Below the pieces are notes generated by a model that worked only from the letters and a program-made list of their open reading frames with translations, had not been told where the DNA came from and ran no database searches. 64,000 nucleotides of DNA, taken from Escherichia coli (GTDB lineage Bacteria > Pseudomonadota > Gammaproteobacteria > Enterobacterales > Enterobacteriaceae). Both the position numbers and the translations under genes were made by a program. The stretch is taken from NCBI RefSeq assembly GCF_044324875.1, contig NZ_CP172185.1, one strand, 5' to 3'. Positions 5,275 through 58,099 of this stretch are shown here, piece after piece (the stretch's first letter is position 1; each line of letters opens with the position of its first letter).

Positions 5275-6213
5275 ATGAGTCAATTAAACAGCGTCTGGGT
5301 CTTTAGCGATAATCCTGAACGTTATGCTGAACTGTTTGGCGGCGCTCAGCAATGGGGCCAACAGGTGTATGCCATTGTACAAAATACCGACCAGGCGCAG
5401 GCAGTTATGCCTTATGGTCCAAAATGTATTTATGTTCTTGAGCAAAATGATGCGCTGCAACGTACTGAAAATTACGCCGAAAGCATTGCTGCCCTGCTGA
5501 AAGATAAACATCCTTCTATGTTGCTGCTGGCCGCGACGAAACGCGGTAAAGCTCTGGCAGCACGGTTAAGTGTGCAACTGAATGCGGCGCTGGTGAACGA
5601 TGCCACTGCGGTGGATATTGTCGATGGTCACATTTGCGCCGAACACCGGATGTATGGCGGGTTAGCGTTCGCACAGGAAAAGATCAATAGCCCGCTGGCG
5701 ATCATTACCCTTGCGCCCGGTGTTCAGGAACCGTGCACCAGTGATACCTCTCATCAGTGCCCGACAGAAACGGTACCTTATGTTGCCCCGCGTCATGAAA
5801 TTCTCTGTCGCGAACGCCGTGCGAAAGCGGCAAGCAGCGTGGACCTGAGCAAAGCAAAACGTGTGGTTGGCGTCGGTCGTGGTCTGGCAGCGCAGGATGA
5901 CCTGAAAATGGTCCACGAACTGGCGGCGGTGCTGAATGCTGAAGTCGGCTGTTCACGTCCAATTGCCGAAGGCGAGAACTGGATGGAGCGTGAACGTTAT
6001 ATCGGTGTCTCCGGCGTGTTGCTGAAATCCGATCTCTACCTGACGCTGGGGATCTCCGGGCAGATCCAGCATATGGTTGGCGGCAACGGCGCAAAAGTGA
6101 TTGTCGCCATCAATAAAGATAAAAATGCGCCAATCTTCAACTATGCCGACTACGGTCTGGTGGGCGATATCTACAAAGTCGTCCCTGCCCTGATTAGCCA
6201 GTTGAGCCGCTAA
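5275..6213 (+). CDS. ydiR: electron transfer flavoprotein alpha subunit (FixB-like)
   Basis: 312-aa ORF, ETF-alpha-like; follows ydiQ. Confidence 0.85.
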   Translation: MSQLNSVWVFSDNPERYAELFGGAQQWGQQVYAIVQNTDQAQAVMPYGPKCIYVLEQNDALQRTENYAESIAALLKDKHPSMLLLAATKRGKALAARLSVQLNAALVNDATAVDIVDGHICAEHRMYGGLAFAQEKINSPLAIITLAPGVQEPCTSDTSHQCPTETVPYVAPRHEILCRERRAKAASSVDLSKAKRVVGVGRGLAAQDDLKMVHELAAVLNAEVGCSRPIAEGENWMERERYIGVSGVLLKSDLYLTLGISGQIQHMVGGNGAKVIVAINKDKNAPIFNYADYGLVGDIYKVVPALISQLSR

Positions 6214-7558: not shown

Positions 7559-7848
7559 GCCAGAACGCTACGGTTAACGTCGACATCAAATTAGGCGTCA
7601 ATAAATTCCATGTTGATGAGGGCCACCCGCATATCATTTTGGCGGCAAATCCCGATATCAATGAATTCCGTAAATTAATGAAAGCCTGCCCTGCCGGACT
7701 TTATAAGCAGGATGATGCCGGCAACATTCATTTTGATTCTGCCGGTTGTCTGGAGTGCGGCACCTGTCGGGTGCTGTGCGGTAACACTATTCTCGAACAG
7801 TGGCAATATCCCGCAGGCACCTTCGGTATTGATTTTCGCTACGGCTAA
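7555..7848 (+). CDS. ydiT: ferredoxin-like protein (FixX-like)
   Basis: 97-aa ORF with Cys cluster (CLECGTCRVLC); start overlaps ydiS stop. Confidence 0.85.
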   Translation: MSQNATVNVDIKLGVNKFHVDEGHPHIILAANPDINEFRKLMKACPAGLYKQDDAGNIHFDSAGCLECGTCRVLCGNTILEQWQYPAGTFGIDFRYG

Positions 7849-7904
7849 TCATGCATCCCACAGGCCCGCATCTCGGGCCTGATGCTCTGTTTCGAGAGTC
7901 CAAA

Positions 7905-9551
7905 ATGAAAGTGACATTAACGTTTAACGAACAACGTCGTGCGGCGTATCGTCAGCAAGGGCTATGGGGCGATGCTTCGCTGGCCGATTACTGGCAGCAG
8001 ACCGCTCGTGCGATGCCAGACAAAATTGCCGTGGTCGATAATCATGGTGCATCGTACACCTATAGCGCGCTCGATCACGCCGCGAGCTGTCTGGCAAACT
8101 GGATGTTAGCGAAGGGTATTGAATCAGGCGATCGCATCGCATTTCAACTGCCTGGCTGGTGTGAATTTACCGTTATCTATCTTGCCTGCCTGAAAATCGG
8201 TGCGGTTTCCGTGCCGCTGTTGCCTTCCTGGCGAGAAGCAGAACTGGTGTGGGTGCTCAATAAGTGTCAGGCAAAAATGTTCTTTGCACCGACGTTGTTT
8301 AAACAAACGCGTCCGGTAGATTTAATCTTGCCGCTGCAAAATCAGCTTCCACAACTACAACAAATTGTCGGCGTGGACAAACTGGCTCCCGCCACCTCTG
8401 CTCTCTCATTAAGTCAGATTATCGCCGACAATACTCCTCTGACCACGGCGATAACGGTCCACGGCGATGAATTAGCCGCGGTGCTGTTTACCTCCGGAAC
8501 CGAGGGTCTGCCAAAGGGCGTGATGCTAACGCATAACAATATTCTCGCCAGTGAGCGGGCTTATTGCGCGCGGTTGAATCTGACCTGGCAGGATGTCTTT
8601 ATGATGCCTGCGCCACTTGGTCATGCAACGGGCTTTCTGCATGGCGTAACGGCACCATTTTTAATTGGTGCTCGCAGCGTGTTGTTAGATATTTTCACTC
8701 CTGCTGCGTGTCTCGCGCTGCTTGAGCAGCAGCGTTGCACCTGTATGCTCGGCGCAACGCCGTTTGTCTATGATCTTTTGAATTTACTGGAGAAACAGCC
8801 CGCTGACCTTTCAGCGCTGCGTTTCTTTCTTTGCGGCGGTACCACAATCCCCAAAAAAGTGGCGCGTGAATGCCAGCAGCGCGGCATTAAATTATTAAGT
8901 GTTTATGGTTCCACAGAAAGTTCGCCGCACGCAGTGGTGAATCTCGATGATCCTTTGTCGCGCTTTATGCATACCGATGGTTACGCTGCCGCAGGAGTTG
9001 AGATTAAAGTGGTCGATGACGCACGCAAGACCTTACCGCCAGGTTGCGAAGGTGAAGAAGCCTCGCGTGGCCCCAATGTGTTTATGGGGTATTTTGATGA
9101 ACCTGAATTAACCGCCCGTGCGCTGGATGAAGAAGGCTGGTATTACAGCGGCGATCTCTGCCGCATGGATGAAGCTGGCTATATAAAAATAACCGGGCGC
9201 AAGAAAGATATTATTGTCCGCGGCGGCGAAAATATTAGCAGCCGTGAAGTAGAAGATATTTTATTGCAGCATCCTAAAATTCACGATGCCTGTGTGGTTG
9301 CGATGCCCGATGAACGTTTAGGTGAACGCTCATGCGCTTATGTCGTGCTGAAAGCCCCGCATCATTCATTATCGCTGGAAGACGTGGTGACTTTTTTTAG
9401 CCGTAAACGGGTCGCGAAATATAAATATCCTGAACATATCGTGGTAATCGAAAAACTACCTCGCACTGCCTCAGGTAAAATACAAAAGTTTTTGTTAAGG
9501 AAAGATATTATGCTGCGATTAACTCAGGATGTCTGTGAAGAGATTGAATAA
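7905..9551 (+). CDS. fadK: short-chain acyl-CoA synthetase
   Basis: AMP-binding motif TSGTEGLPKGV; start taken at MKVTLTF (ATG 7905) rather than the upstream in-frame ORF start at 7851. Confidence 0.8.
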   Translation: MKVTLTFNEQRRAAYRQQGLWGDASLADYWQQTARAMPDKIAVVDNHGASYTYSALDHAASCLANWMLAKGIESGDRIAFQLPGWCEFTVIYLACLKIGAVSVPLLPSWREAELVWVLNKCQAKMFFAPTLFKQTRPVDLILPLQNQLPQLQQIVGVDKLAPATSALSLSQIIADNTPLTTAITVHGDELAAVLFTSGTEGLPKGVMLTHNNILASERAYCARLNLTWQDVFMMPAPLGHATGFLHGVTAPFLIGARSVLLDIFTPAACLALLEQQRCTCMLGATPFVYDLLNLLEKQPADLSALRFFLCGGTTIPKKVARECQQRGIKLLSVYGSTESSPHAVVNLDDPLSRFMHTDGYAAAGVEIKVVDDARKTLPPGCEGEEASRGPNVFMGYFDEPELTARALDEEGWYYSGDLCRMDEAGYIKITGRKKDIIVRGGENISSREVEDILLQHPKIHDACVVAMPDERLGERSCAYVVLKAPHHSLSLEDVVTFFSRKRVAKYKYPEHIVVIEKLPRTASGKIQKFLLRKDIMLRLTQDVCEEIE

Positions 9552-20025: not shown

Positions 20026-20086
20026 GGTATCCGTTCTGCTGAAGTGTCATGGCGTTGATTTTACGGTGACTCTTCGACAGTGAAAA

Positions 20087-20108
20087 GAAAAAAGGCCGCA
20101 GAGCGGCC
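20087..20108. repeat. attL core, direct repeat gaaaaaaggccgcagagcggcc
   Basis: Identical 22-mer at 57761-57782; seen in sequence. Confidence 0.7.
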
Positions 20109-20200: not shown

Positions 20201-20218
20201 GGTCACTTTGTGGATCAT
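20201..20218. repeat. 18-bp repeat ggtcactttgtggatcat inside prophage left arm (possible integrase arm-type site)
   Basis: 17/18 match to 57705-57722 in same orientation; functional role is inference. Confidence 0.3.
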
Positions 20219-20631
20219 TCGTCCCCTTCTTTCTCTTTGTTCTGTTGAACGCTAATTGCGACACACGTAGCAATCAAATCTTTACATTTCTCCATATCTT
20301 CTGTCTTGCGCAACTTGATGCTTGCCACCGATTGTGGATTATCCGCTGTGGCACAATGCATTGTTATTTCAATGTCGTTTCGATGAAAGAGTCCCATAAT
20401 AGCTTTTGCAACCTCCGTCCCTTTTTCCGCGATATCAAAGATCAAAGCAAGTTTATACAAAATATCACCAGAAAAACACTCAACCCTGCTAAGACCAACA
20501 TCACATAATGAAAAATATTGCTCAACGTCCCCCTGGAGTTCGGGAGCACACACAATATCTATTTTTCCGTACTGGCCTGAATAAAAGTCACTATTAACTG
20601 TTTTTTTCACAACATCCTCCTTCTTCAGCAA
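20215..20631 (-). CDS. hypothetical acidic protein at prophage left end (C-terminal region paralogous to ORF 56096-56311)
   Basis: 138-aa ORF overlapping 3' end of int; FHRNDIEITMHC...IKLRKTEDMEKCKDLI resembles FRRNDIEIELHF...VKLRHARDVQACQCLI. Confidence 0.55.
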   Translation of the reverse strand: MLKKEDVVKKTVNSDFYSGQYGKIDIVCAPELQGDVEQYFSLCDVGLSRVECFSGDILYKLALIFDIAEKGTEVAKAIMGLFHRNDIEITMHCATADNPQSVASIKLRKTEDMEKCKDLIATCVAISVQQNKEKEGDE

Positions 20632-21595
20632 TTGGATTAAACCTCACCGCATCCTGCAAATAATCCGGTGCAAGATGGGCATAAATCATCGTTGTCTGAA
20701 TCTTTGCGTGCCCCAGAATTTTCTGGAGCGTCAGAATATTGCCGCCGTTCATCATGAAATGACTGGCGAAAGTGTGGCGCAGCGCGTGAACGGCCTGCCC
20801 GTCAGGAATGGAAGGGGCAACCGCTTTTATCGAATCGCGCACCAGTGAATAATCCAGCGCCGGAAATACCAGCTTTCCGCCCCGTTTTTTAATTTTGTCA
20901 AACAGGCTTTCAGAAATTGGAACAGTCCGGTTTTTACTGTTTTTGGTTCTGGAAAATGTGATCCGGGAATGCAGAACGCGGCGCTGTTCAAGTGCCACCA
21001 CCTCACCCCATCGCGCCCCGGTAGATAAAAGAATTTCAGTAGCTAGCCGTTCGTCGGGATGCTCTACCAGAACGTCAAGCAGCTGGAGGCACTCCTGCCT
21101 GTTCAGATACCCCATTTCGCGCTCGCTGACCTTCATCCCTTTCAGTCCGCTAACAGGGTTATCATTCTGGAAGTGACCGGATGAGATGAGTGCGGAAAAC
21201 ATCGCGCTAAGCGCACCAACCTCGCGGTTTATGGTACTTGGCTGAATCCCCTCCTCCGCTCTTGCCACGCGTAATTCCGTTAACGTGGTGGCGTTGACGT
21301 TGTTAACACGCGGATCCCCCATCGCTTCACACACGCGCTGTAATTTGAGGCGTGTGTTCCACCCCGATTTCATCAGTTGCCCGTGAAACTTCCACCATAA
21401 TTCGATAAGTTCGGACAACGAACGGCGATCGGTCGGCGCACTGTTCCATGCGTTATTTTGGTGTTGAGCTAAAACCCAGCGTTCGAACTGGATAGCCTCC
21501 GACTTTGTTTTGAACTTTTTACGAATGCGTTTACCTTTGCGCCCATCAGGACGCATATCAACCATGTAGCCACCAGGGATTGATTTTATGCTCAT
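20594..21595 (-). CDS. int: tyrosine-type site-specific integrase (P2 Int-like)
   Basis: Translation MSIKSIPGGYMVDMRPDGRKGKR...; C-terminal ...HALRHTFASHFMMNGGNILTLQKILGH...YAHL catalytic region; start chosen at ATG 21595 inside longer ORF. Confidence 0.9.
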   Translation of the reverse strand: MSIKSIPGGYMVDMRPDGRKGKRIRKKFKTKSEAIQFERWVLAQHQNNAWNSAPTDRRSLSELIELWWKFHGQLMKSGWNTRLKLQRVCEAMGDPRVNNVNATTLTELRVARAEEGIQPSTINREVGALSAMFSALISSGHFQNDNPVSGLKGMKVSEREMGYLNRQECLQLLDVLVEHPDERLATEILLSTGARWGEVVALEQRRVLHSRITFSRTKNSKNRTVPISESLFDKIKKRGGKLVFPALDYSLVRDSIKAVAPSIPDGQAVHALRHTFASHFMMNGGNILTLQKILGHAKIQTTMIYAHLAPDYLQDAVRFNPIAEEGGCCEKNS

Positions 21596-21644
21596 TGGCA
21601 TACCCCCAGCGTCACAAGCCCACCGTGCCCCCAGCGTTCCATAA

Positions 21645-21953
21645 TCAGCCGTGCAGTGTGCCAGTCTTGCGGACTTTTTGAGAAGGTGATGTGCTTTCTG
21701 GCCCATCAGGGGAGAGAGTCGGGCTGATCTGCCCAGCAGCCTCGTTTGTTTTTCCCGTCATGAGCCAATTCATGTACTTAAAAAAACGAGGATGATTAAC
21801 AATCTTGACGAGAGCTTCGCCGCCGACATTCTCAATCCGACCTGTCTCATAACGGCGTAGAGTACCGATAGGTACATCAATCAGTTCACAAAACTCTTCA
21901 CGCGTTAACCCTTCCGACTCACGAATTACTCTGATTTTTTCACCAATAAACAT
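21645..21953 (-). CDS. immunity repressor (P2 C-like HTH protein)
   Basis: 102-aa HTH protein upstream of int and divergent from early operon; recalled resemblance to P2 C. Confidence 0.7.
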   Translation of the reverse strand: MFIGEKIRVIRESEGLTREEFCELIDVPIGTLRRYETGRIENVGGEALVKIVNHPRFFKYMNWLMTGKTNEAAGQISPTLSPDGPESTSPSQKVRKTGTLHG

Positions 21954-23847: not shown

Positions 23848-24333
23848 TTAGCGGGAAGCGCCAACCGTAAGGCTGGCAATGATTTTTTCGGAGAGTGAGA
23901 GAGATTCGCGATGATTAAGACCAAGAGCAGCACAAGCTTTATTGCGCGCCGGGTTGTCCATGCATTCAAGCACCGGAGAGTCCTGCTTCTCAATTTCCAC
24001 CAGTCGCGCCAGCAACACCTCCGTGCTGAGACCGTCGCTTTCAGTAATCAGGACGTTATAGCGATGAGCCTGTTCTTTTGCAGCCTGAGCGCGTCGCCCA
24101 AATTTCCAGGCGATATTGCAGCCACTAAGCACAGCCACGATACCACCCAGCAACCAACTGAAATTGCTGTCTGCAAACACAGTAGCCCCAGACGTAAGGA
24201 TGACAGCATTAATCACCGTATCCATACGGCGGTTAAACACCTCCGAAATATGTTCAAGCCAGTAACTGTTCCAGAGACGAAACATGACCTCGTGTCGCCG
24301 TTCGGCATGATTTTCAGTTGGTTGTCTGTTCAT
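23848..24333 (-). CDS. hypothetical membrane protein with a two-helix hydrophobic hairpin, opposite strand to early operon
   Basis: 161-aa ORF; hydrophobic stretch INAVILTSGATVFADSNFSWLLGGIVAVLSGCNIAW. Confidence 0.5.
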   Translation of the reverse strand: MNRQPTENHAERRHEVMFRLWNSYWLEHISEVFNRRMDTVINAVILTSGATVFADSNFSWLLGGIVAVLSGCNIAWKFGRRAQAAKEQAHRYNVLITESDGLSTEVLLARLVEIEKQDSPVLECMDNPARNKACAALGLNHRESLSLSEKIIASLTVGASR

Positions 24334-24576
24334 TGCGGTTTAACCCTCCTCATCATCTCGCCCCTGCCCTTTTTCAGGCGCGGGAGCCGGTTGCCGTGGC
24401 ACATGAAATTTATCGCTATCAGACATTTATTTTTTCCCGTGTGTTGTTGAACAAAGTGCCCGCACAGTTTTGACGGAACGGCGGGCGCTTCAAGCGTAAC
24501 ACACCCTTCTTTTCCGGTTGAAGGCGAAAAAAACCGGACAGCTACCCGACACAAACCAGACCAGCGGAGAACTGCC

Positions 24577-25131
24577 ATGTACGCACTTAAACCTATGGGG
24601 ATACCAGGCAAAGCCCCGGCGCATGTGAAAGCCTGGACACAGCAGGAAGATGATTTGCTGATCACCCTGTACCCGCAGCACACAGCACGAGATATCGCCG
24701 GGCGTCTGGGGCGCAGCCACGAAGGCGTGAAGAGCCGCATTTGTCGTCTGCGTGAACAGGGCAGGATTGGCATCAAGCAGCAAAGACTAAGCGATGAGAT
24801 GATCGCCACGCTCATCAGGAACCGCCACACCAGGTCCCTCAAGGAACTGGCACACATGGCGAAAGTTTCGACACGCACGGTAACCAACCGATTGAGGGCG
24901 CTGGGCTACAGCCTGATCAAATGCGGGGATCTGCATAAAAACACCGTCTACAGCGACCGCATCGTTGAGATTATCAGACAGTTACACGACGAGCAGGGCC
25001 TGACGTTCAGGGAAATCGCACAGCGCCTTAGCCACGAACTACAGCCGAACCCTACCCCGACACTGGCTCAACGTCTCTACTGGCGGTGCACAGCATCCGA
25101 CGCCGTATTCCGTGAACTGTTACCAGATTGA
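24577..25131 (+). CDS. putative DNA-binding protein with three HTH-like repeats
   Basis: 184-aa ORF with three similar ~35-aa segments rich in R/K after short helices. Confidence 0.5.
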   Translation: MYALKPMGIPGKAPAHVKAWTQQEDDLLITLYPQHTARDIAGRLGRSHEGVKSRICRLREQGRIGIKQQRLSDEMIATLIRNRHTRSLKELAHMAKVSTRTVTNRLRALGYSLIKCGDLHKNTVYSDRIVEIIRQLHDEQGLTFREIAQRLSHELQPNPTPTLAQRLYWRCTASDAVFRELLPD

Positions 25132-25454
25132 GCAATCACCATGTACACACAAAAAAACCGCTTGCAACAACAAACCGGAACAGGGTACGCTTCCCCCGCA
25201 CCTCATAAAGCGGGTGCCGGGTTTCGCAGCCTGCTGACTAGCAAAGCGCACAACCGCGCCAGCGGTTTTTTTGTGCGTACTGTATTGCCACGTCTTTTTC
25301 GCATCAGAATTATGGTGGGGCGTACGGGGCCGACTTCGGTCGGGCCGGTTTCTTCGTTTGCCGGTGTTGAGAACCCCGTACGTCTCGCCACCCCGAGATT
25401 CTCAACTCTGGTTGGTGAGTATCCAAAAACTCACAAACGAAGAGGCCAAACACC

Positions 25455-25673
25455 ATGGCAAACCGCAAACAGCGCCGCGCTATCGCTGCGCAGCGTCACA
25501 TCCAGACCGAAATCAACCGCAGACTCTTCCGCGCCCACAACATCGCGCGAATCATGCACGCCAACATGCTGCATGAACGCAGTAACGCGTTATCAAACCT
25601 CTATTCCGCTTCCGTTTTCAGCTATCTGGCGGACGACCTGCGCGAGCTGCAAGACCTCATTAACCAGCACTGA
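25455..25673 (+). CDS. hypothetical early protein
   Basis: 72-aa basic ORF. Confidence 0.45.
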   Translation: MANRKQRRAIAAQRHIQTEINRRLFRAHNIARIMHANMLHERSNALSNLYSASVFSYLADDLRELQDLINQH

Positions 25674-25745
25674 TAAACAACCCGAAGCCATCCTGCGCCC
25701 GTTCGCGGGAGGCTTCCGCACATCTGTAGTCGGGAGGATTGCGCC

Positions 25746-26114
25746 ATGATTCTGGCTGACGATTTTCTGGAGTACCTGAACAACACCGAGCGCGACCTGT
25801 ACGCGCGCGTTCTCACCCGTTACGAGAAATACAAACTTTCGCTGCCAGAACATCAACTCCGCGAAGGCGATATCGACATTGAAGGGCGCTACATCGTCAG
25901 GCACCTCATAGCGGGCTACGGCATCTGGCGTGTCACCGGACGTGAGCATTCATTGCTGACCATCTGCCAGAGTCCGTCCGGCGTGATAACGGAGATCGTC
26001 GCTGATAGTCTGCGACTCACCCATCACAGCGCCACCCCGGAAGAAACGCTGGCAGAAACCCAGCGTCTGTGTCGCGTCATTGCCAACGCCGCCCTCCGCG
26101 CAGACAGGAGGTAA
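25746..26114 (+). CDS. hypothetical early protein
   Basis: 122-aa ORF immediately upstream of gpA. Confidence 0.5.
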   Translation: MILADDFLEYLNNTERDLYARVLTRYEKYKLSLPEHQLREGDIDIEGRYIVRHLIAGYGIWRVTGREHSLLTICQSPSGVITEIVADSLRLTHHSATPEETLAETQRLCRVIANAALRADRR

Positions 26115-26117
26115 GCG

Positions 26118-28292
26118 ATGGAGTTCGTCAGAGACTGGCAAAAACCGCGCCCCGCTATCGGGCGCGAAGGCTTACCCGTACCTGAAACCGCACTGGATAC
26201 CATCCTGAAGTGTTACCGCGCGGACGAAGAGCGCGCCCTGAACGCTGAAGAGCAGGGTCATCCGCTTGCGGGCACAACCATCGGTAACGCGATCGACAAG
26301 TGGGAAGGCGCACAGGAGCGCCAGGAAGAGGCCATCACGCTCACACAGGAAGCGAAGAGACGCCCACCCACCCTCATTGAGGAAACCCTCAAAGAGCTGG
26401 ACACCCTGCCAAAGTGGTTGAGGCTGCCACTGATTAAGTACCTGAACTTCTTAAGGCGCAAACAGGAGGACGAACAGCAGAAAGGCAAGCGCGGCAAGGA
26501 CACCCGCAAATATGAGCGCTTCCTGAAAAACGGCATCCCCGCACGTCTTCGCCGTATTCGTGAGATTAACGCTCGCTTTGCACCGTTAAGTTTTCAGGCC
26601 GCTGCCATGCGCGAGAGTCTGGAAGAGTTAATCACACTGCCGAACCTGAGCCGTGAACGCATCCAGAAAATAGCCGTACTGCTTGCCAGCGCCGTTAAAA
26701 TGCATCTTGCCGACGCAATGGACAAGGCCCGCGAAATAACAGGGAACGACAAAGACGACAACCTGAACAACTGGCTGATTGCCTACCAGTATATTGGTCG
26801 CCGTGTCCTGAAGCTGGGGATCACCCCACCATACTGGAGCGCCCTTGAACTCCGTCCCGACCGCAGAAGCCCCCCGGACCTGACACTGGTACCGGGCGCT
26901 GTTTTGCGCCTGAACGACGCCGAATGGTGGAATAAAAAACTTCGCCAGATGCACGACGTCTGGCGTGAGGAACTTTTACGTGCAGCGGGCCTTGTATCCC
27001 GCCAGACCTCCATTTATGTGAGCCGGGAAGCGCTGGCAGACTTCCGCGAGAAACAGGCCCGTACCCGCGATTTTCTCAAAGCGCACGACGTGGAGAACGA
27101 AGACGGCGAACGCATCAGCCTGGAAGATATCTACTACGCCAGTACATCCAACCCGCATAACCGCCGCAACGAGATGATGGCGTGCGTCAAGGGAATGGAG
27201 CTTATCGCACAGGAACGTGGCGACGTGGCCTTCTTCGTCACGGTCACAGCCCCGTCTCGTTTTCACAGCGTCACCGACGCCGGTACCCTTAACCCGAAAT
27301 ACAAAGGCACAACAGTAAAAGACGCCAGCGACTATCTGGTTTATAACTTCTTCGCCTCCGCCCGCAAACTCATCAAAAAAGAGAAGCGGGGCTGGTACGG
27401 CATTCGCACCGTGGAGCCTCACCACGACGGCACGCCCCACTGGCACATGCTGGTATTCACAAGCCCCGAGAACGAAGCGCGCATCACGGAAATCATGTGC
27501 AATGCCGCCATCCGTGAAGACCGTGCAGAGCTGGGCGACGACATTACCCCGCGCTTCAAGTGCGAGAAGATAGACCCCGAAAAAGGTACGCCAACCAGCT
27601 ACATCGCCACCTACATCGGCAAAGGCATTGACGCCGCCGCATTCGGCGACACGGATCCCAAAACAGGCAAACCGCCCGTTGACCACGAAAGCGGAAAACC
27701 TATGGCGGACACCGTGGAAAACGCCGTCGCCTGGGCACGCCTGCATCGCATTCGCCAGTTCCAGTTCTTTGGCCTTCCCTCACGTCAGGTGTGGCGCGAG
27801 TTCCGCCGCCTTGCCGGACAAATGGCACGCAACCCGAAGGGGCCGCAGGCACTGACCAACCCCAAAGCCGACGCCCTCCTTGTTGCAGCCGATACGGGGT
27901 GTTTTGCCAGCTACATCATGCATCAGGGCGGTGTGCTCATTCCCCGCAGTGAATATCTGGCCCGCACGGCCTACGTCACCGCAGAAGAGCCGAACAACTA
28001 CGGCGAGTTCCCCGACCGTATTTACGGTGTACGGATGCCGGAACTGGGCGATGAGTTCACGTTATGTACCCACCCGGAAGAGTGGAAAATCGTCAGAAAG
28101 GAACCGGAACCAGACAACCGCACGGGCGAGGGTTTTGACCTTCAGGGCGACCCCGTCGCCCCTTGGACTCGTGGCAATAACTGTCACCCTGACGAAAAAA
28201 ACAACCAACAACAGCACACAAACAGAACAGTCAGAGTGGGCAAAACTGCCCCCCTTACCCCCATCGTCGGACGGTTTTGTGAGCTGGTTTAA
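26118..28292 (+). CDS. replication initiation endonuclease (P2 gpA-like rolling-circle Rep)
   Basis: 724-aa ORF with HxH metal motif (PHWHMLVF) and downstream Tyr-containing ...YIATYIGKG...; P2 gene order. Confidence 0.85.
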   Translation: MEFVRDWQKPRPAIGREGLPVPETALDTILKCYRADEERALNAEEQGHPLAGTTIGNAIDKWEGAQERQEEAITLTQEAKRRPPTLIEETLKELDTLPKWLRLPLIKYLNFLRRKQEDEQQKGKRGKDTRKYERFLKNGIPARLRRIREINARFAPLSFQAAAMRESLEELITLPNLSRERIQKIAVLLASAVKMHLADAMDKAREITGNDKDDNLNNWLIAYQYIGRRVLKLGITPPYWSALELRPDRRSPPDLTLVPGAVLRLNDAEWWNKKLRQMHDVWREELLRAAGLVSRQTSIYVSREALADFREKQARTRDFLKAHDVENEDGERISLEDIYYASTSNPHNRRNEMMACVKGMELIAQERGDVAFFVTVTAPSRFHSVTDAGTLNPKYKGTTVKDASDYLVYNFFASARKLIKKEKRGWYGIRTVEPHHDGTPHWHMLVFTSPENEARITEIMCNAAIREDRAELGDDITPRFKCEKIDPEKGTPTSYIATYIGKGIDAAAFGDTDPKTGKPPVDHESGKPMADTVENAVAWARLHRIRQFQFFGLPSRQVWREFRRLAGQMARNPKGPQALTNPKADALLVAADTGCFASYIMHQGGVLIPRSEYLARTAYVTAEEPNNYGEFPDRIYGVRMPELGDEFTLCTHPEEWKIVRKEPEPDNRTGEGFDLQGDPVAPWTRGNNCHPDEKNNQQQHTNRTVRVGKTAPLTPIVGRFCELV

Positions 28293-55701: not shown

Positions 55702-55953
55702 ATGTTCCGTTGTCCCCTGTGCGGTGCATCCGCACGTATCCGCACCAGTCGCAATGAAAATGATTCAGGCACAGTTCGCCTGAAGTACTACCAGTGCAAT
55801 AACCTCGAATGCGGGATCGGCTTTACCACACTGGAGGGTTTTAACAAATTCACATCAAAACGCGCCCCGTCGCCGCAGGGTACAGAGCGGATACCGTGGG
55901 AAGATTTTCCGGGATCTCACAGGGGGAATGCTCAGATGAATCTTGATATTTAA
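55702..55953 (+). CDS. ogr: Ogr/Delta-family zinc-finger late transcription activator
   Basis: MFRCPLCG...YYQCNNLECG Cys4 arrangement; position after D. Confidence 0.8.
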   Translation: MFRCPLCGASARIRTSRNENDSGTVRLKYYQCNNLECGIGFTTLEGFNKFTSKRAPSPQGTERIPWEDFPGSHRGNAQMNLDI

Positions 55954-55965
55954 GAACAATAATCA

Positions 55966-56097
55966 GGTTGAGAGGACATCATAAGGCAAGTAGATTAACG
56001 GCAGATACTTTCCCGCAACCACGGGCAAGTATTTAATTATCCATGATGAAATATGACCTAAATTGTTTTTTGCCCGCCGGAAAGCGGGCATTTTTTT
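55966..56097 (+). repeat. repeat unit 1 (GGTTGAG...GTAGATTAAC...hairpin+T-run), candidate small RNA
   Basis: Shares 5' GGTTGAG, GTAGATTAAC core, TTATCCATGAT and terminal gcccgccNNNNNNgggc+T7 with units 2/3. Confidence 0.3.
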
Positions 56098-56311
56098 ATT
56101 CTTTTGTGGTTATGGGGTCATCAGGAACCACGTGCAGATTATATTTTTGTTTTTTTGGCGTTCCTCCGGCAGCAACGAGTTCATCAATAAGACACTGACA
56201 CGCCTGAACATCCCGGGCATGTCTTAGTTTCACCTTTATTGATTTAACCTTATCCTCACCGGAGGAGAAATGCAGTTCAATCTCAATATCGTTTCTTCGG
56301 AACAATCTCAT
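56096..56311 (-). CDS. hypothetical small protein, paralogous to C-terminal half of ORF 20215-20631
   Basis: 71-aa ORF with RBS AGGGGGG; similarity noted by eye. Confidence 0.5.
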   Translation of the reverse strand: MRLFRRNDIEIELHFSSGEDKVKSIKVKLRHARDVQACQCLIDELVAAGGTPKKQKYNLHVVPDDPITTKE

Positions 56312-56580
56312 ACGCCCCCCTGAATATATCAGAAATGCTAGTATCGAAAAATGAGAAAACAGTTAGACAGGAGAAACATATTAACACAAATCATTTATAC
56401 CTATAGATGAAATTATAATTTCATTCATGAATATGATAGATAACTATATTGTGAACAAAATGAAAAATGGCTAAATTAAAAATGGGCATGGAGGAATGCC
56501 TCGTAATCAGTAATACATGATCCATACTTCCTTGTTTTGCCCGCCGGAAAGCGGGCATTTTTTTGGCGGTTACCATCGCC

Positions 56581-56765
56581 TCACCTTCCTGGTTCACACA
56601 AAGCAACCCTGATTTTCCATGAAAACTTCAGGGTTGAGCCAAAAGCACAAAGACAGTAGATTAACCAAGGGTACCCGCCACCTGCCAACAGGAACGGTAT
56701 CCAGTACGTATTAATGACTGACAATTCACATTGCTGTTTTGCCCGCCAGAAGGTGGGCATTTTTT
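56581..56765 (+). repeat. repeat unit 2 (~203-bp period) ending in intrinsic terminator, candidate small RNA
   Basis: Near-identical to unit 3 with scattered substitutions; terminator stem 56740-56757 + T-run. Confidence 0.35.
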
Positions 56766-56783
56766 TGGCAGTTATCATGGACG

Positions 56784-56968
56784 CACCTTCATGACACATA
56801 TTAAGCAGACCTGATTTTTCCATGAAAAATTCATGGTTGAGACAAAAGCACAAAAACAGTAGATTAACCACGGGTGCCTGCCACCTGACAACAGGAAGGG
56901 GTGTCCATTATCCATGATATACAAACGAAAAGTCTTGTCTTTTGCCCGCCGTTGCGCGGGCTTTTTTT
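56784..56968 (+). repeat. repeat unit 3 ending in intrinsic terminator, candidate small RNA
   Basis: As unit 2; terminator stem 56943-56960 + T8 overlaps hicB stop. Confidence 0.35.
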
Positions 56969-57366
56969 TATCCAAGAACCCTGTCTGCAGCAACACGCGC
57001 CAGAAATCCAGAGCGGCTACCGTATTCAGGATGAGACTCAACGAACTGATCAATGCGACGAATAAGCAGAGATGGCAGGGTAACATTGATTTTTTCCGAT
57101 TTCCCCATCAGGCGGGACACATCCACCTCAACGAGCGCCCACACTGCATCACTGTATTCAGGATCTGATTGCCATTCATCAAGATTTGTAGCGACAGGGA
57201 TAGACTCACCAGATTCAACCAGTAATTCTACGTGTGCCTCAATGGCTTCACGGGCACTGTCTACCGCATCCTGAAAACTATCACCGCCAGAAAAACAGCC
57301 GGGCAGATCTGGGACGCGAACACCAAAAGATGAATCCCCCCGGTCAATAGCGATTGCATATAACAT
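56968..57366 (-). CDS. hicB: HicB-family antitoxin
   Basis: MLYAIAIDRGDSSFGVRVPDLPGCFSGGDSFQDAVDSAREAIEAH... typical HicB N-domain; C-terminal RHH-like tail. Confidence 0.8.
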   Translation of the reverse strand: MLYAIAIDRGDSSFGVRVPDLPGCFSGGDSFQDAVDSAREAIEAHVELLVESGESIPVATNLDEWQSDPEYSDAVWALVEVDVSRLMGKSEKINVTLPSLLIRRIDQFVESHPEYGSRSGFLARVAADRVLG

Positions 57367-57388: not shown

Positions 57389-57568
57389 TTACAGCCCCGC
57401 CTGTTTCTTAATACTTTTTAAAGTTGGTAAAGGTATATCTTTTTGAGGGTGTTTTACCGTTACCAGCCCCTTCTTTGTCGGATGTTTGAATTGATGATGA
57501 CTCCCCTTAACCCTAACAAGATACCATCCATCCGCCTCTATCATTGCTATTGCACTTTTGCTATCCAT
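57389..57568 (-). CDS. hicA: HicA-family toxin (59 aa; absent from ORF track)
   Basis: Manual translation of minus strand: MDSKSAIAMIEADGWYLVRVKGSHHQFKHPTKKGLVTVKHPQKDIPLPTLKSIKKQAGL; 20 bp upstream of hicB. Confidence 0.75.
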   Translation of the reverse strand: MDSKSAIAMIEADGWYLVRVKGSHHQFKHPTKKGLVTVKHPQKDIPLPTLKSIKKQAGL

Positions 57569-57704
57569 CCCCCCGTACTCCGTCTTTCGTTGTTGGAGTT
57601 ATTATAACCCCAACAACTAGTCAAAGCAAGGGTTCGGAGTTATTAGAGTTATAGAATAATTGACTGCCTCCCCAAAACTGCGGCAAGAAAAAACCACTGA
57701 CCAC

Positions 57705-57722
57705 GGTCAATTTGTGGATCAT
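57705..57722. repeat. 18-bp repeat ggtcaatttgtggatcat inside prophage right arm
   Basis: 17/18 match to 20201-20218. Confidence 0.3.
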
Positions 57723-57760
57723 GAATTAATTTTTATTTATAAATCAATGCATTATACAAA

Positions 57761-57782
57761 GAAAAAAGGCCGCAGAGCGGCC
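57761..57782. repeat. attR core gaaaaaaggccgcagagcggcc (part of ihfA terminator hairpin)
   Basis: Identical to 20087-20108; followed by T-run, i.e. intact terminator after ihfA. Confidence 0.7.
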
Positions 57783-57799
57783 TTTTTAGTTAGATCAGA

Positions 57800-58099
57800 T
57801 TACTCGTCTTTGGGCGAAGCGTTTTCGACCCGGCTTTTTAACTTCTGCCCGGGTCTGAAGGTCACCACGCGCCGTGCTGTAATGGGAATATCCTCGCCCG
57901 TTTTCGGGTTACGTCCCGGGCGTTGATTCTTATCACGCAGATCGAAGTTACCAAAACCAGAGAGTTTCACCTGTTCGCCGTTTTCCAGAGCGCGACGGAT
58001 CTCTTCGAAAAACAGTTCAACCAGTTCTTTGGCATCCCGCTTGCTAAGCCCAAGCTTATCAAACAGATATTCTGACATTTCAGCTTTTGTAAGCGCCAT
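57800..58099 (-). CDS. ihfA: integration host factor alpha subunit
   Basis: 99-aa [57 protein letters not shown]... Confidence 0.95.

Follow-up and report, generated by a model that had tools for sequence, protein, structure and literature searches.

A predicted array of sibling small-RNA genes at the ogr-attR end of a P2/P88-like Escherichia coli prophage

Cassettes between ogr and hicB

The 64-kb stretch of Escherichia coli chromosome analyzed here (the window) contains a prophage of about 37.7 kb, and the interval between its late-activator gene ogr and the toxin-antitoxin gene hicB holds a family of short repeats that an initial annotation had described as three tandem units, each closed by an intrinsic terminator, and had put forward as a candidate small-RNA (sRNA) array. 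The location, the repeats, and the terminators were as described, but four cassettes are present rather than three and only two of them are in tandem. From ogr to hicB the order is u1 (about 55966-56098), a gene for a 71-amino-acid protein (ORF71) with an AT-rich divergent promoter region, t4 (56449-56565), u2 (56634-56767), and u3 (56837-56970), with all four cassettes on the plus strand. We conclude that the feature is real and non-random and that the earlier idea of an sRNA array is right in kind and wrong in anatomy.

A repeat finder recovered four near-identical plus-strand terminators of the form TTTTGCCCGCC-loop-GGGC(A/T)T7-8, which, together with a terminator scan, were placed at 56063-56099, 56530-56566, 56732-56768, and 56935-56971. 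Seven terminator-like sites lie in 2.1 kb, compared with 2.1 ± 1.4 in shuffled sequences, and four of the seven form the array. The GGTTGAG-N16-AGTAGATTAAC block that had been noticed in units 1 to 3 was recovered by the same program as three copies, at 55966, 56632, and 56835, in a family with 74% identity to u1. The cassettes u2 and u3 stand head to tail with 80-89% identity and a period of 202-203 nt, in agreement with the period of about 203 bp first estimated. The first cassette had been called shorter than the others; measured between -35 hexamer and terminator, it matches them in length and lacks only the inter-unit spacer. Likewise, the fourth terminator reported at 56537-56562 is real but not a stray element, as it belongs to a full cassette, t4, with a promoter-like site of its own.

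The GGTTGAG...TAGATT block is best read as a predicted sigma-70-type promoter, TTGAGN-17-TAGATT. The corresponding plus-strand sites are TTGAGA-17-TAGATT for u1 (55968-55996; promoter scan, 9 of 12 matches), TTGTGA-17-TAAATT for t4 (56449-56477; read from the sequence), TTGAGC-17-TAGATT for u2 (56634-56662; pattern match and alignment), and TTGAGA-17-TAGATT for u3 (56837-56865; promoter scan). An alignment of seven units shows little or no change in either hexamer or in the distance between them, in contrast to a variable 17-nt spacer; u1 and u2, for instance, differ at 8 of its 17 positions (counted by eye on the alignment). In a sister prophage, L002, the unit at 5673 differs from its sibling at 9 of the 30 positions of the -35 to -10 block, of which eight fall in the spacer and one in a hexamer (split counted by hand). 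The five distinct t4-type copies also keep the hexamers and the 17-nt spacing and differ in their spacers. Because hexamers and spacing are kept while the spacers diverge, the block appears to evolve as a promoter would and not as a seed would. The 'AAAAGCACAAAGACAG' stretch sits between the two hexamers, so it most likely lies upstream of the transcription start and is not transcribed. The suggestion that this CA-rich core is an sRNA seed or sponge was therefore abandoned, the check for a GcvB sponge (see below) also being negative.

Two palindromes accompany the promoter-like sites. An imperfect 27-bp palindrome, CCCTGATTTTCCATGAAAACTTCAGGG, occupies 56607-56633, just upstream of the u2 -35 hexamer, has a counterpart at about 56810-56836 in u3, and is highly conserved in the alignment of all six u2/u3-type copies. 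Its center near -50 of u2 and u3 suggests regulated transcription and makes it a candidate operator, through which a dimeric DNA-binding factor would control both cassettes. It presumably differs from the TGT-N12-ACA element of P2 late promoters. We rejected a role as a phage-wide operator, as no further copy was found elsewhere in the 64-kb window. A perfect palindrome, ATGAAATTATAATTTCAT, at 56407-56424 overlaps a minus-strand TATAAT in the divergent promoter region of ORF71 and t4 and is a candidate operator of that promoter pair.

The outer cassettes abut their neighbors closely. The u1 promoter-like site starts 15 nt past the ogr stop codon, and the u3 T-tail overlaps the hicB stop codon. 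Since no terminator lies between the ogr stop codon and the u1 terminator, the latter probably also ends the transcript of D and ogr, and u1 would then double as the 3' end of that transcript.

Architecture, conservation, and coding potential of the predicted RNAs

With the RNA starts placed 6-7 nt after the -10 hexamer, the cassettes are predicted to give four short plus-strand transcripts. That of u1 (~96 nt, 56002-56098) would comprise a 5' stem-loop (56003-56034), a linker with UUAUCCAUGAU, and a terminator hairpin (56071-56090) followed by T7. The u2 and u3 RNAs (~99 nt each, 56669-56767 and 56872-56970) would likewise consist of a 5' stem-loop, a linker with GUAUUAAUGAC in u2 and with UUAUCCAUGAU in u3, and a terminator hairpin (56740-56759 with T7 and 56944-56961 with T8, respectively). 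The t4 RNA (~82 nt, 56484-56565) would open with the hairpin GGGCAU-GGAGGA-AUGCC and continue through a linker to a terminator hairpin at 56538-56557 with T7. The predicted sizes of 82-99 nt fall below the 100-180 nt originally expected.

Every distinct u-type copy, when folded alone, forms a 5' hairpin and the terminator, joined by a linker of about 35-40 nt that is mostly unpaired. The fold of u1 has an energy of -27.7 kcal/mol, and the z-scores of the four RNAs against shuffles are -3.3 (u1), -2.2, -2.2, and -0.8. The linker is A/U-rich and opens with a common motif, which reads UAUC(C/A)AUGA in u-type copies and UUAUCAAU or UAAUCAGU in t4-type copies; its mean unpaired probability is 0.54-0.83 in 13 of the 14 distinct copies, those in which the motif pattern was found. 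Past this motif the linkers diverge into three or four types, namely that of u1, a u2-like type (...GACAGACAACUCACAUUG), a u3-like type (...AUACAAACGAAAAGUCUUG), and the t4 variants, and each type is conserved across prophage variants. A U-rich stretch, a GC hairpin, and a poly-U tail make up the typical 3' module of Hfq-binding sRNAs. At the sequence level this module, with its Rho-independent terminator, long U tail, and preceding U-rich stretch, is present in all four cassettes as UUUU, a GCCCGCC hairpin, and U7-8.

A covariance model built from seven u-type RNAs only was used to search the 64-kb window and found exactly four members and nothing else: u1 (85.9 bits), u2 (90.3 bits), u3 (100.6 bits), and t4 (38.2 bits, E = 1.8e-5, matched end to end at 56484-56565). 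At the level of gene models the locus thus has the arrangement expected of sibling sRNAs, at least two adjacent homologues, each with a promoter and a terminator. Across 14 distinct sequences, 93.6% of the cells are paired, and two-sided changes occur in seven pairs, of which six belong to the 5' helix. The folding and covariation check that had been suggested for this locus gave a score of 0.231 compared with 0.106 in shuffles (0 of 500 reaching it) and at most 0.04 with slid partners, although the alignment had been fitted to the model, and only a few, closely related sequences went into it. The single-sequence folds are independent of the model and give the same 5' hairpin in every u-type copy.

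Substitutions between u2 and u3 had been described as scattered. We found them to be uneven: 21 of 37 linker positions and 12 of 39 spacer positions differ, as opposed to 2 of 30 in the -35 to -10 block and 0 of 8 in the 5' arm of the terminator stem. u3 and its L002 orthologue differ at 10 places in the 66 nt of spacer and palindrome and at three of the six terminator-loop positions, but they are identical over the 105 nt that run from the -35 hexamer to the end of the linker and in the 5' stem arm. No compared pair differs in that arm, and the loops vary. The predicted u1 RNA is 100% identical across all related loci.

The coding potential of the repeats was examined on both strands. Plus-strand ORFs of 31 amino acids occur at 56619-56714 and 56822-56917; they start upstream of the -35 hexamer, have no Shine-Dalgarno sequence, and are absent from u1, and among the copies a 1-nt deletion cuts the frame to 21 amino acids in one, while it extends to at least 49 in two others. 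They had been reported as the only ORFs, lacking a ribosome-binding site; the second point holds, but mechanically called minus-strand ORFs of 96 and 103 amino acids are also present, none of them conserved among copies. The linker ATG also opens ORFs, which run through the terminator in a different frame in each of u1, u2/u3, and t4. A hydrophobic minus-strand frame, PWLIYC(L/F)CAF..., simply reads the promoter in reverse complement; its start is not shared, and frameshifts separate the copies. On neither strand did the cassette copies share a conserved start, frame, and length together with a ribosome-binding site. The earlier preference for RNA over protein is therefore supported in silico by the pairing of promoters with terminators, the common architecture, the compensatory changes in the 5' helix, and the lack of a conserved ORF.

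Distribution, sister arrays, and related RNAs

The array, a single unit, and even the 36-nt terminator were found in the same 30 of 5426 complete E. coli genomes only (0.55%). At every locus examined the cassettes lie inside this prophage lineage, whose members sit at ihfA, serS, or zapB. Among the strains with the prophage are F11, NRZ14408, TUM9803, and LH50-c. A known repetitive intergenic element had been named as the finding that would overturn the sRNA idea; given this restriction to 30 genomes, and to the prophage at each locus examined, we rejected a host repetitive element of the REP/BIME or ERIC kind. Some genomes contain two such prophages; they have as many as 13 terminator copies and probably some twelve or more cassettes. 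No match was found in 50,697 phage records or 72,556 plasmids, and two exact-pattern scans of one genome per species for 100,044 species found nothing. A metagenome scan returned five contigs, all with the same E. coli element, and scans of viral sequences returned three real loci, again of the same element, the rest being chance or terminator-only matches. The u-type covariance model has no member in the phages P88 or Chuche, and no annotation of the cassette RNAs was found in any of the 30 genomes.

A comparison of right ends showed that the sister prophages end beside serS (L002 and L003) or zapB (L004), apparently also at terminators. The L002 prophage has eight covariance-model members. 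From ogr to serS its order is u1, ORF71, t4, u, hok/sok, a truncated ORF71, t4, u, a degenerate ORF71, t4, u, u, and a degenerate hok, from which the repeated module can be read as ORF71 + t4 + u(+u). The RNA cassettes of this array are all intact, and two of the three ORF71 copies have decayed. The hok/sok-type locus of L002 (5806-6310, with hok at 6030-6170) shares about 90% identity with its P88 counterpart; another hok/sok copy, apparently degenerate, lies at 7826-8300, and both are interleaved with the cassettes.

In the window, ORF71 (WP_001236182.1; RefSeq, 56096-56311, minus strand) separates u1 from t4, and its stop codon falls inside the T-tail of the u1 terminator. The protein matches the C-terminal half of PHROG 14142, of which a full-length member, the 138-amino-acid orf138, is encoded at 20215-20631 on the minus strand between int and the left attachment site (attL). 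ORF71 is 38% identical to residues 79-134 of orf138 and is a paralogue of its C-terminal half. No Pfam, PADLOC, or NCBIfam match was found for ORF71, and the structure model of orf138 (pLDDT 68) gave weak, generic ferredoxin-like (PII) matches only (E at best 4e-3, TM ~0.4). Distant ORF71 homologues lie near the ends of P2/P4-like elements and have no adjoining cassettes, so the link between ORF71 and the RNAs appears specific to this lineage.

The search for a known RNA family, also suggested at the outset, gave no Rfam match at the gathering score in 55900-57050. At permissive thresholds the best scores were 20-24 bits against the 55-70 bits needed (AgvB, 20 vs 56; RyhB, 21 vs 55), and we attribute the sub-threshold AgvB and RyhB matches to the common 3' module. 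A known family was therefore rejected in a comparison that named AgvB, AsxR, RyhB, Sok, Sib, IstR, OrzO, C4, IsrK, and STnc100. The weak AgvB matches, together with ACAACA loops, also prompted us to consider an anti-GcvB sponge; this candidate was discarded, as duplex energies with GcvB R1 were no better than those of shuffles. In the papers searched we found no account of sRNAs between ogr and att of P2-like phages.

Tandem sibling sRNAs are known from OmrA/OmrB in E. coli, PrrF1/PrrF2 in Pseudomonas, and LhrC1-4 in Listeria (PMC4211561). Like them, the cassettes are adjacent homologous units, each with a predicted promoter and a terminator, that have 3' and structural modules in common and partly diverged candidate seed segments; unlike those core-genome sRNAs with known regulators and targets, they are prophage cargo, number four to eight per prophage, and are predicted from sequence. 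The prophage-encoded Hfq-binding sRNAs of E. coli and Salmonella (the anti-sRNAs AgvB and AsxR, PasA-D, DicF, IsrK, and STnc100; 10.64898/2026.05.13.724894) are also short, carried by prophages, and terminated by a U-rich stretch, a GC hairpin, and poly-U. The Pas sRNAs come from lambdoid Stx phages and their copies are dispersed, the closest pasA pair being 22 kb apart (10.64898/2026.05.13.724894), whereas the cassettes are tandem and lie in a P2/P88-like phage.

With type I antitoxins (Sok, IstR-1, OrzO, and Sib) and type III ToxI, the array has in common small predicted RNAs, a repetitive organization, a setting in cargo rich in toxin-antitoxin loci, and, for t4, divergence from a small protein gene. 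It differs from type I systems in having no hydrophobic toxin ORF and no match to the Sok, Sib, IstR, or OrzO models. ToxI consists of 36-nt repeats on one transcript upstream of an endoribonuclease gene; here, units with a terminator each recur every 202-203 nt, and the array is not followed by a plus-strand protein gene. sRNAs of the DapZ/MicL type are located in 3' UTRs and have their own internal promoter, usually inside the upstream coding sequence. Of the four cassettes only u1 resembles them, in that it sits in the ogr 3' UTR with a predicted promoter of its own and a terminator common with the D-ogr transcript; it is unlike them in that this promoter lies past the ogr stop codon and not in coding sequence.

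Interpretation and prophage setting

We propose, with an even chance of being right, that the interval comprises four paralogous, independently transcribed sibling genes for Hfq-type trans-acting sRNAs, carried as prophage cargo at the end between ogr and the right attachment site (attR). Transcription, Hfq dependence, action in trans, and targets are what we infer from the anatomy and its conservation. In each cassette, a sigma-70-type promoter (TTGAGN or TTGTGA, 17 nt, TAGATT or TAAATT) would drive an RNA of about 82-99 nt that ends at a Rho-independent terminator. The sibling RNAs would then act in trans, most likely by base-pairing, with the CAU (anti-AUG) of the linker pairing with the translation-initiation regions of mRNAs from the host or from competing elements.

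Several observations weigh against this proposal. The cassette RNAs are predicted from sequence, and single promoter matches are no commoner than in shuffled DNA (three found, 3.8 expected). The narrow distribution counts in the same direction, as some of the conservation could simply be due to recent duplication and gene conversion, and so does the origin of the covariation alignment mentioned above. In the target searches, the RNAs showed no excess complementarity to GcvB and no significant complementarity to any RNA encoded in the 64-kb window, the best linker matches being reached by 5-78% of shuffles. Complementarity to the ORF71 mRNA was also not significant, the best match being 10 nt (t4), which 8% of shuffles reach.

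The array might instead be a decaying segmental duplication, in which a tandem duplication of ORF71, t4, and u left no more than one functional copy, the rest being neutral remnants kept similar by recent duplication or gene conversion. Such a history would suit the mosaic units, whose spacer and linker types recombine, the truncated or degenerate second and third ORF71 copies of L002, and the youth and narrowness of a family found in 30 genomes. It is the protein gene of the module that decays, however, whereas every cassette keeps its hexamers, 17-nt spacing, 5' hairpin, and terminator. Moreover, the differences spare the promoter and the RNA body and fall in the spacer and terminator loop, and the three or four linker types are each conserved across prophage variants. 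We regard neutral decay as unlikely, though deserving of some weight. A role confined to the locus is also unlikely in our view: the cassettes would fire against read-through from hicBA to ORF71 and stop read-through from D and ogr. Transcriptional interference and RNase III cleavage would in this way shield ihfA and the end of the prophage, and there would be no targets in trans. That hicB and ORF71 both end within the T-tails of plus-strand terminators is in line with this, as are the lack of a good minus-strand terminator after hicB (only a weak one is present, at 56500-56485) and the position of the u1 terminator as the first after ogr. Yet sister arrays that lack hicBA and have other right-hand neighbors still keep their cassettes, and an array of terminators needs no promoters, conserved 5' hairpins, or single-stranded motif.

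A quite improbable alternative is that the t4 or u RNAs, or both, are antitoxins that neutralize ORF71 in a type I-like manner (cf. tisB/istR and zorO/orzO) or a neighboring hok or hicA. The divergence of t4 and ORF71 from a common AT-rich region with a palindrome would agree with it, the array lies amid toxin-antitoxin loci (hicAB here, hok/sok in the sister phages and P88), and RNA genes beside decayed ORF71 copies would fit orphan antitoxins. Complementarity of the RNAs to the ORF71 mRNA is nevertheless no better than chance, and ORF71 does not show the combination of a toxin ORF with about 18 nt or more of antisense that marks type I systems. ORF71 is a charged protein rather than a small hydrophobic peptide, structure models of its full-length homologues show a generic ferredoxin-like fold, its distant homologues have no adjoining cassettes, and the window has cassettes but no hok. 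We give very little credence to the repeats being DNA-level sites, that is, relic att sites or captured host terminators, or protein-binding repeats of the attP arm. The phage does integrate in the ihfA terminator and its sisters apparently at the serS and zapB terminators, and ORF71 is a partial copy of an attP-adjacent gene in the same orientation relative to a terminator hairpin. The cassette terminator, however, occurs in no E. coli genome outside these prophages and is unlike the ihfA and serS cores, the array is outside the att-proximal arms, and the conservation of promoter and 5' hairpin would be left unexplained. The lack of u-type sequence in the wider scans also speaks against capture. 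We find it hardly credible that the 31-amino-acid ORFs, the linker-ATG ORFs, or the hydrophobic minus-strand ORFs are real products: all six u2/u3-type units do have an ORF whose ATG occupies the same column of the alignment, the linker ATG is invariant in the u-type copies, and a hydrophobic stretch is encoded opposite the promoter, but these ORFs vary in frame, start, or length, and the 31-amino-acid ORF has no Shine-Dalgarno sequence. Each of these alternatives fails on at least one of three points: the conservation of the promoter, that of the 5' hairpin, and the persistence of the cassettes across different right-hand neighborhoods.

The sibling-sRNA reading would make the cassettes a very narrowly distributed new family of a known kind, as predicted from sequence. 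A bolder version, which we consider speculative and improbable, is that they form a recombining library of sibling sRNAs with a constant scaffold (5' hairpin, UAUCMAUGA, and Hfq module) and exchangeable linker seeds, serving as weapons against competing phages or mobile elements or to reprogram the host, possibly with ORF71 as an RNA-protein toxin-antitoxin or defense module among hok/sok and hicAB. If expressed, the cassettes would constitute an uncatalogued sRNA family with no Rfam model and a very dense tandem array (sister prophages pack as many as eight genes into about 2.8 kb), carried as cargo of P2/P88-like phages beside toxin-antitoxin loci. They would also provide a P2-type example of prophage riboregulation, so far known mostly from lambdoid phages, and would let one follow in nature how duplication and recombination diversify sibling sRNAs that share a scaffold but differ in their linkers. 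In practical terms, 1-3 kb of prophage sequence now 'unannotated' would count as probable genes in E. coli associated with poultry and humans.

The prophage that carries the array is delimited by an identical 25-mer, AAAGAAAAAAGGCCGCAGAGCGGCC, at 20084-20108 (attL) and 57758-57782 (attR). This 25-mer is the ihfA transcription terminator, and the phage thus integrates into that terminator. The int gene lies at 20594-21706 (minus strand) and a replication gene at 26118-28292, and the tail genes, D, and ogr form the right end. The ogr gene (55702-55953, plus strand) was assigned to the Ogr/Delta zinc-finger late activators from the RefSeq annotation of an identical locus; its match to NCBIfam PRK09678 is below the cut-off. 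Beyond the array, hicB (56968-57366) and hicA (57389-57568) are annotated by RefSeq on the minus strand as a type II toxin-antitoxin pair; the pair is convergent with the array and is context outside the repeat family. The closest sequenced relatives are P88-like Peduoviridae (Xuanwuvirus), with about 74% nucleotide identity over sheath-D-ogr. In P88 and Chuche, a hok/sok locus directly follows ogr and other cargo precedes att, which identifies the ogr-att interval as a cargo site in this phage group.

Other RNA matches lie elsewhere in the window or at its attachment site. In the prophage early region, isrK (64.7 bits, 25198-25272) and C4 antisense RNA (79.2 bits, 25308-25395) were found on the plus strand at the Rfam gathering level; they form a pair that corresponds to the P1/P7-type RNA immunity module and overlaps a mechanically called ORF at 25141-25749. 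An Rfam STnc540 match (43.1 bits) at 57703-57858 on the minus strand covers the ihfA 3' end and the attR junction; as it crosses the junction, its distal part is phage-supplied sequence. Among unrelated viral contigs, a near-identical terminator preceded by AACAAGGAAC gave terminator-driven covariance-model matches of about 30 bits (L033 1250-1330, L037 195-273, L050 11091-11170, L036 1807-1894, and L051 6104-6188), and these sites may represent another phage sRNA-like element. The top linker match within the window pairs the u1 linker with 24274-24288 on the minus strand, inside an ORF at 23848-24333 (PHROG 6315), over 15 bp including two G-U pairs (-31 kcal/mol); 11% of shuffles do as well by ungapped score, which makes chance the probable cause. 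That ORF, the PHROG 6315 member, and a 185-amino-acid ORF with no PHROG match are the two minus-strand genes at 23848-24887 in an otherwise plus-strand early region, and they are possibly cargo in the interval between int and the replication gene.

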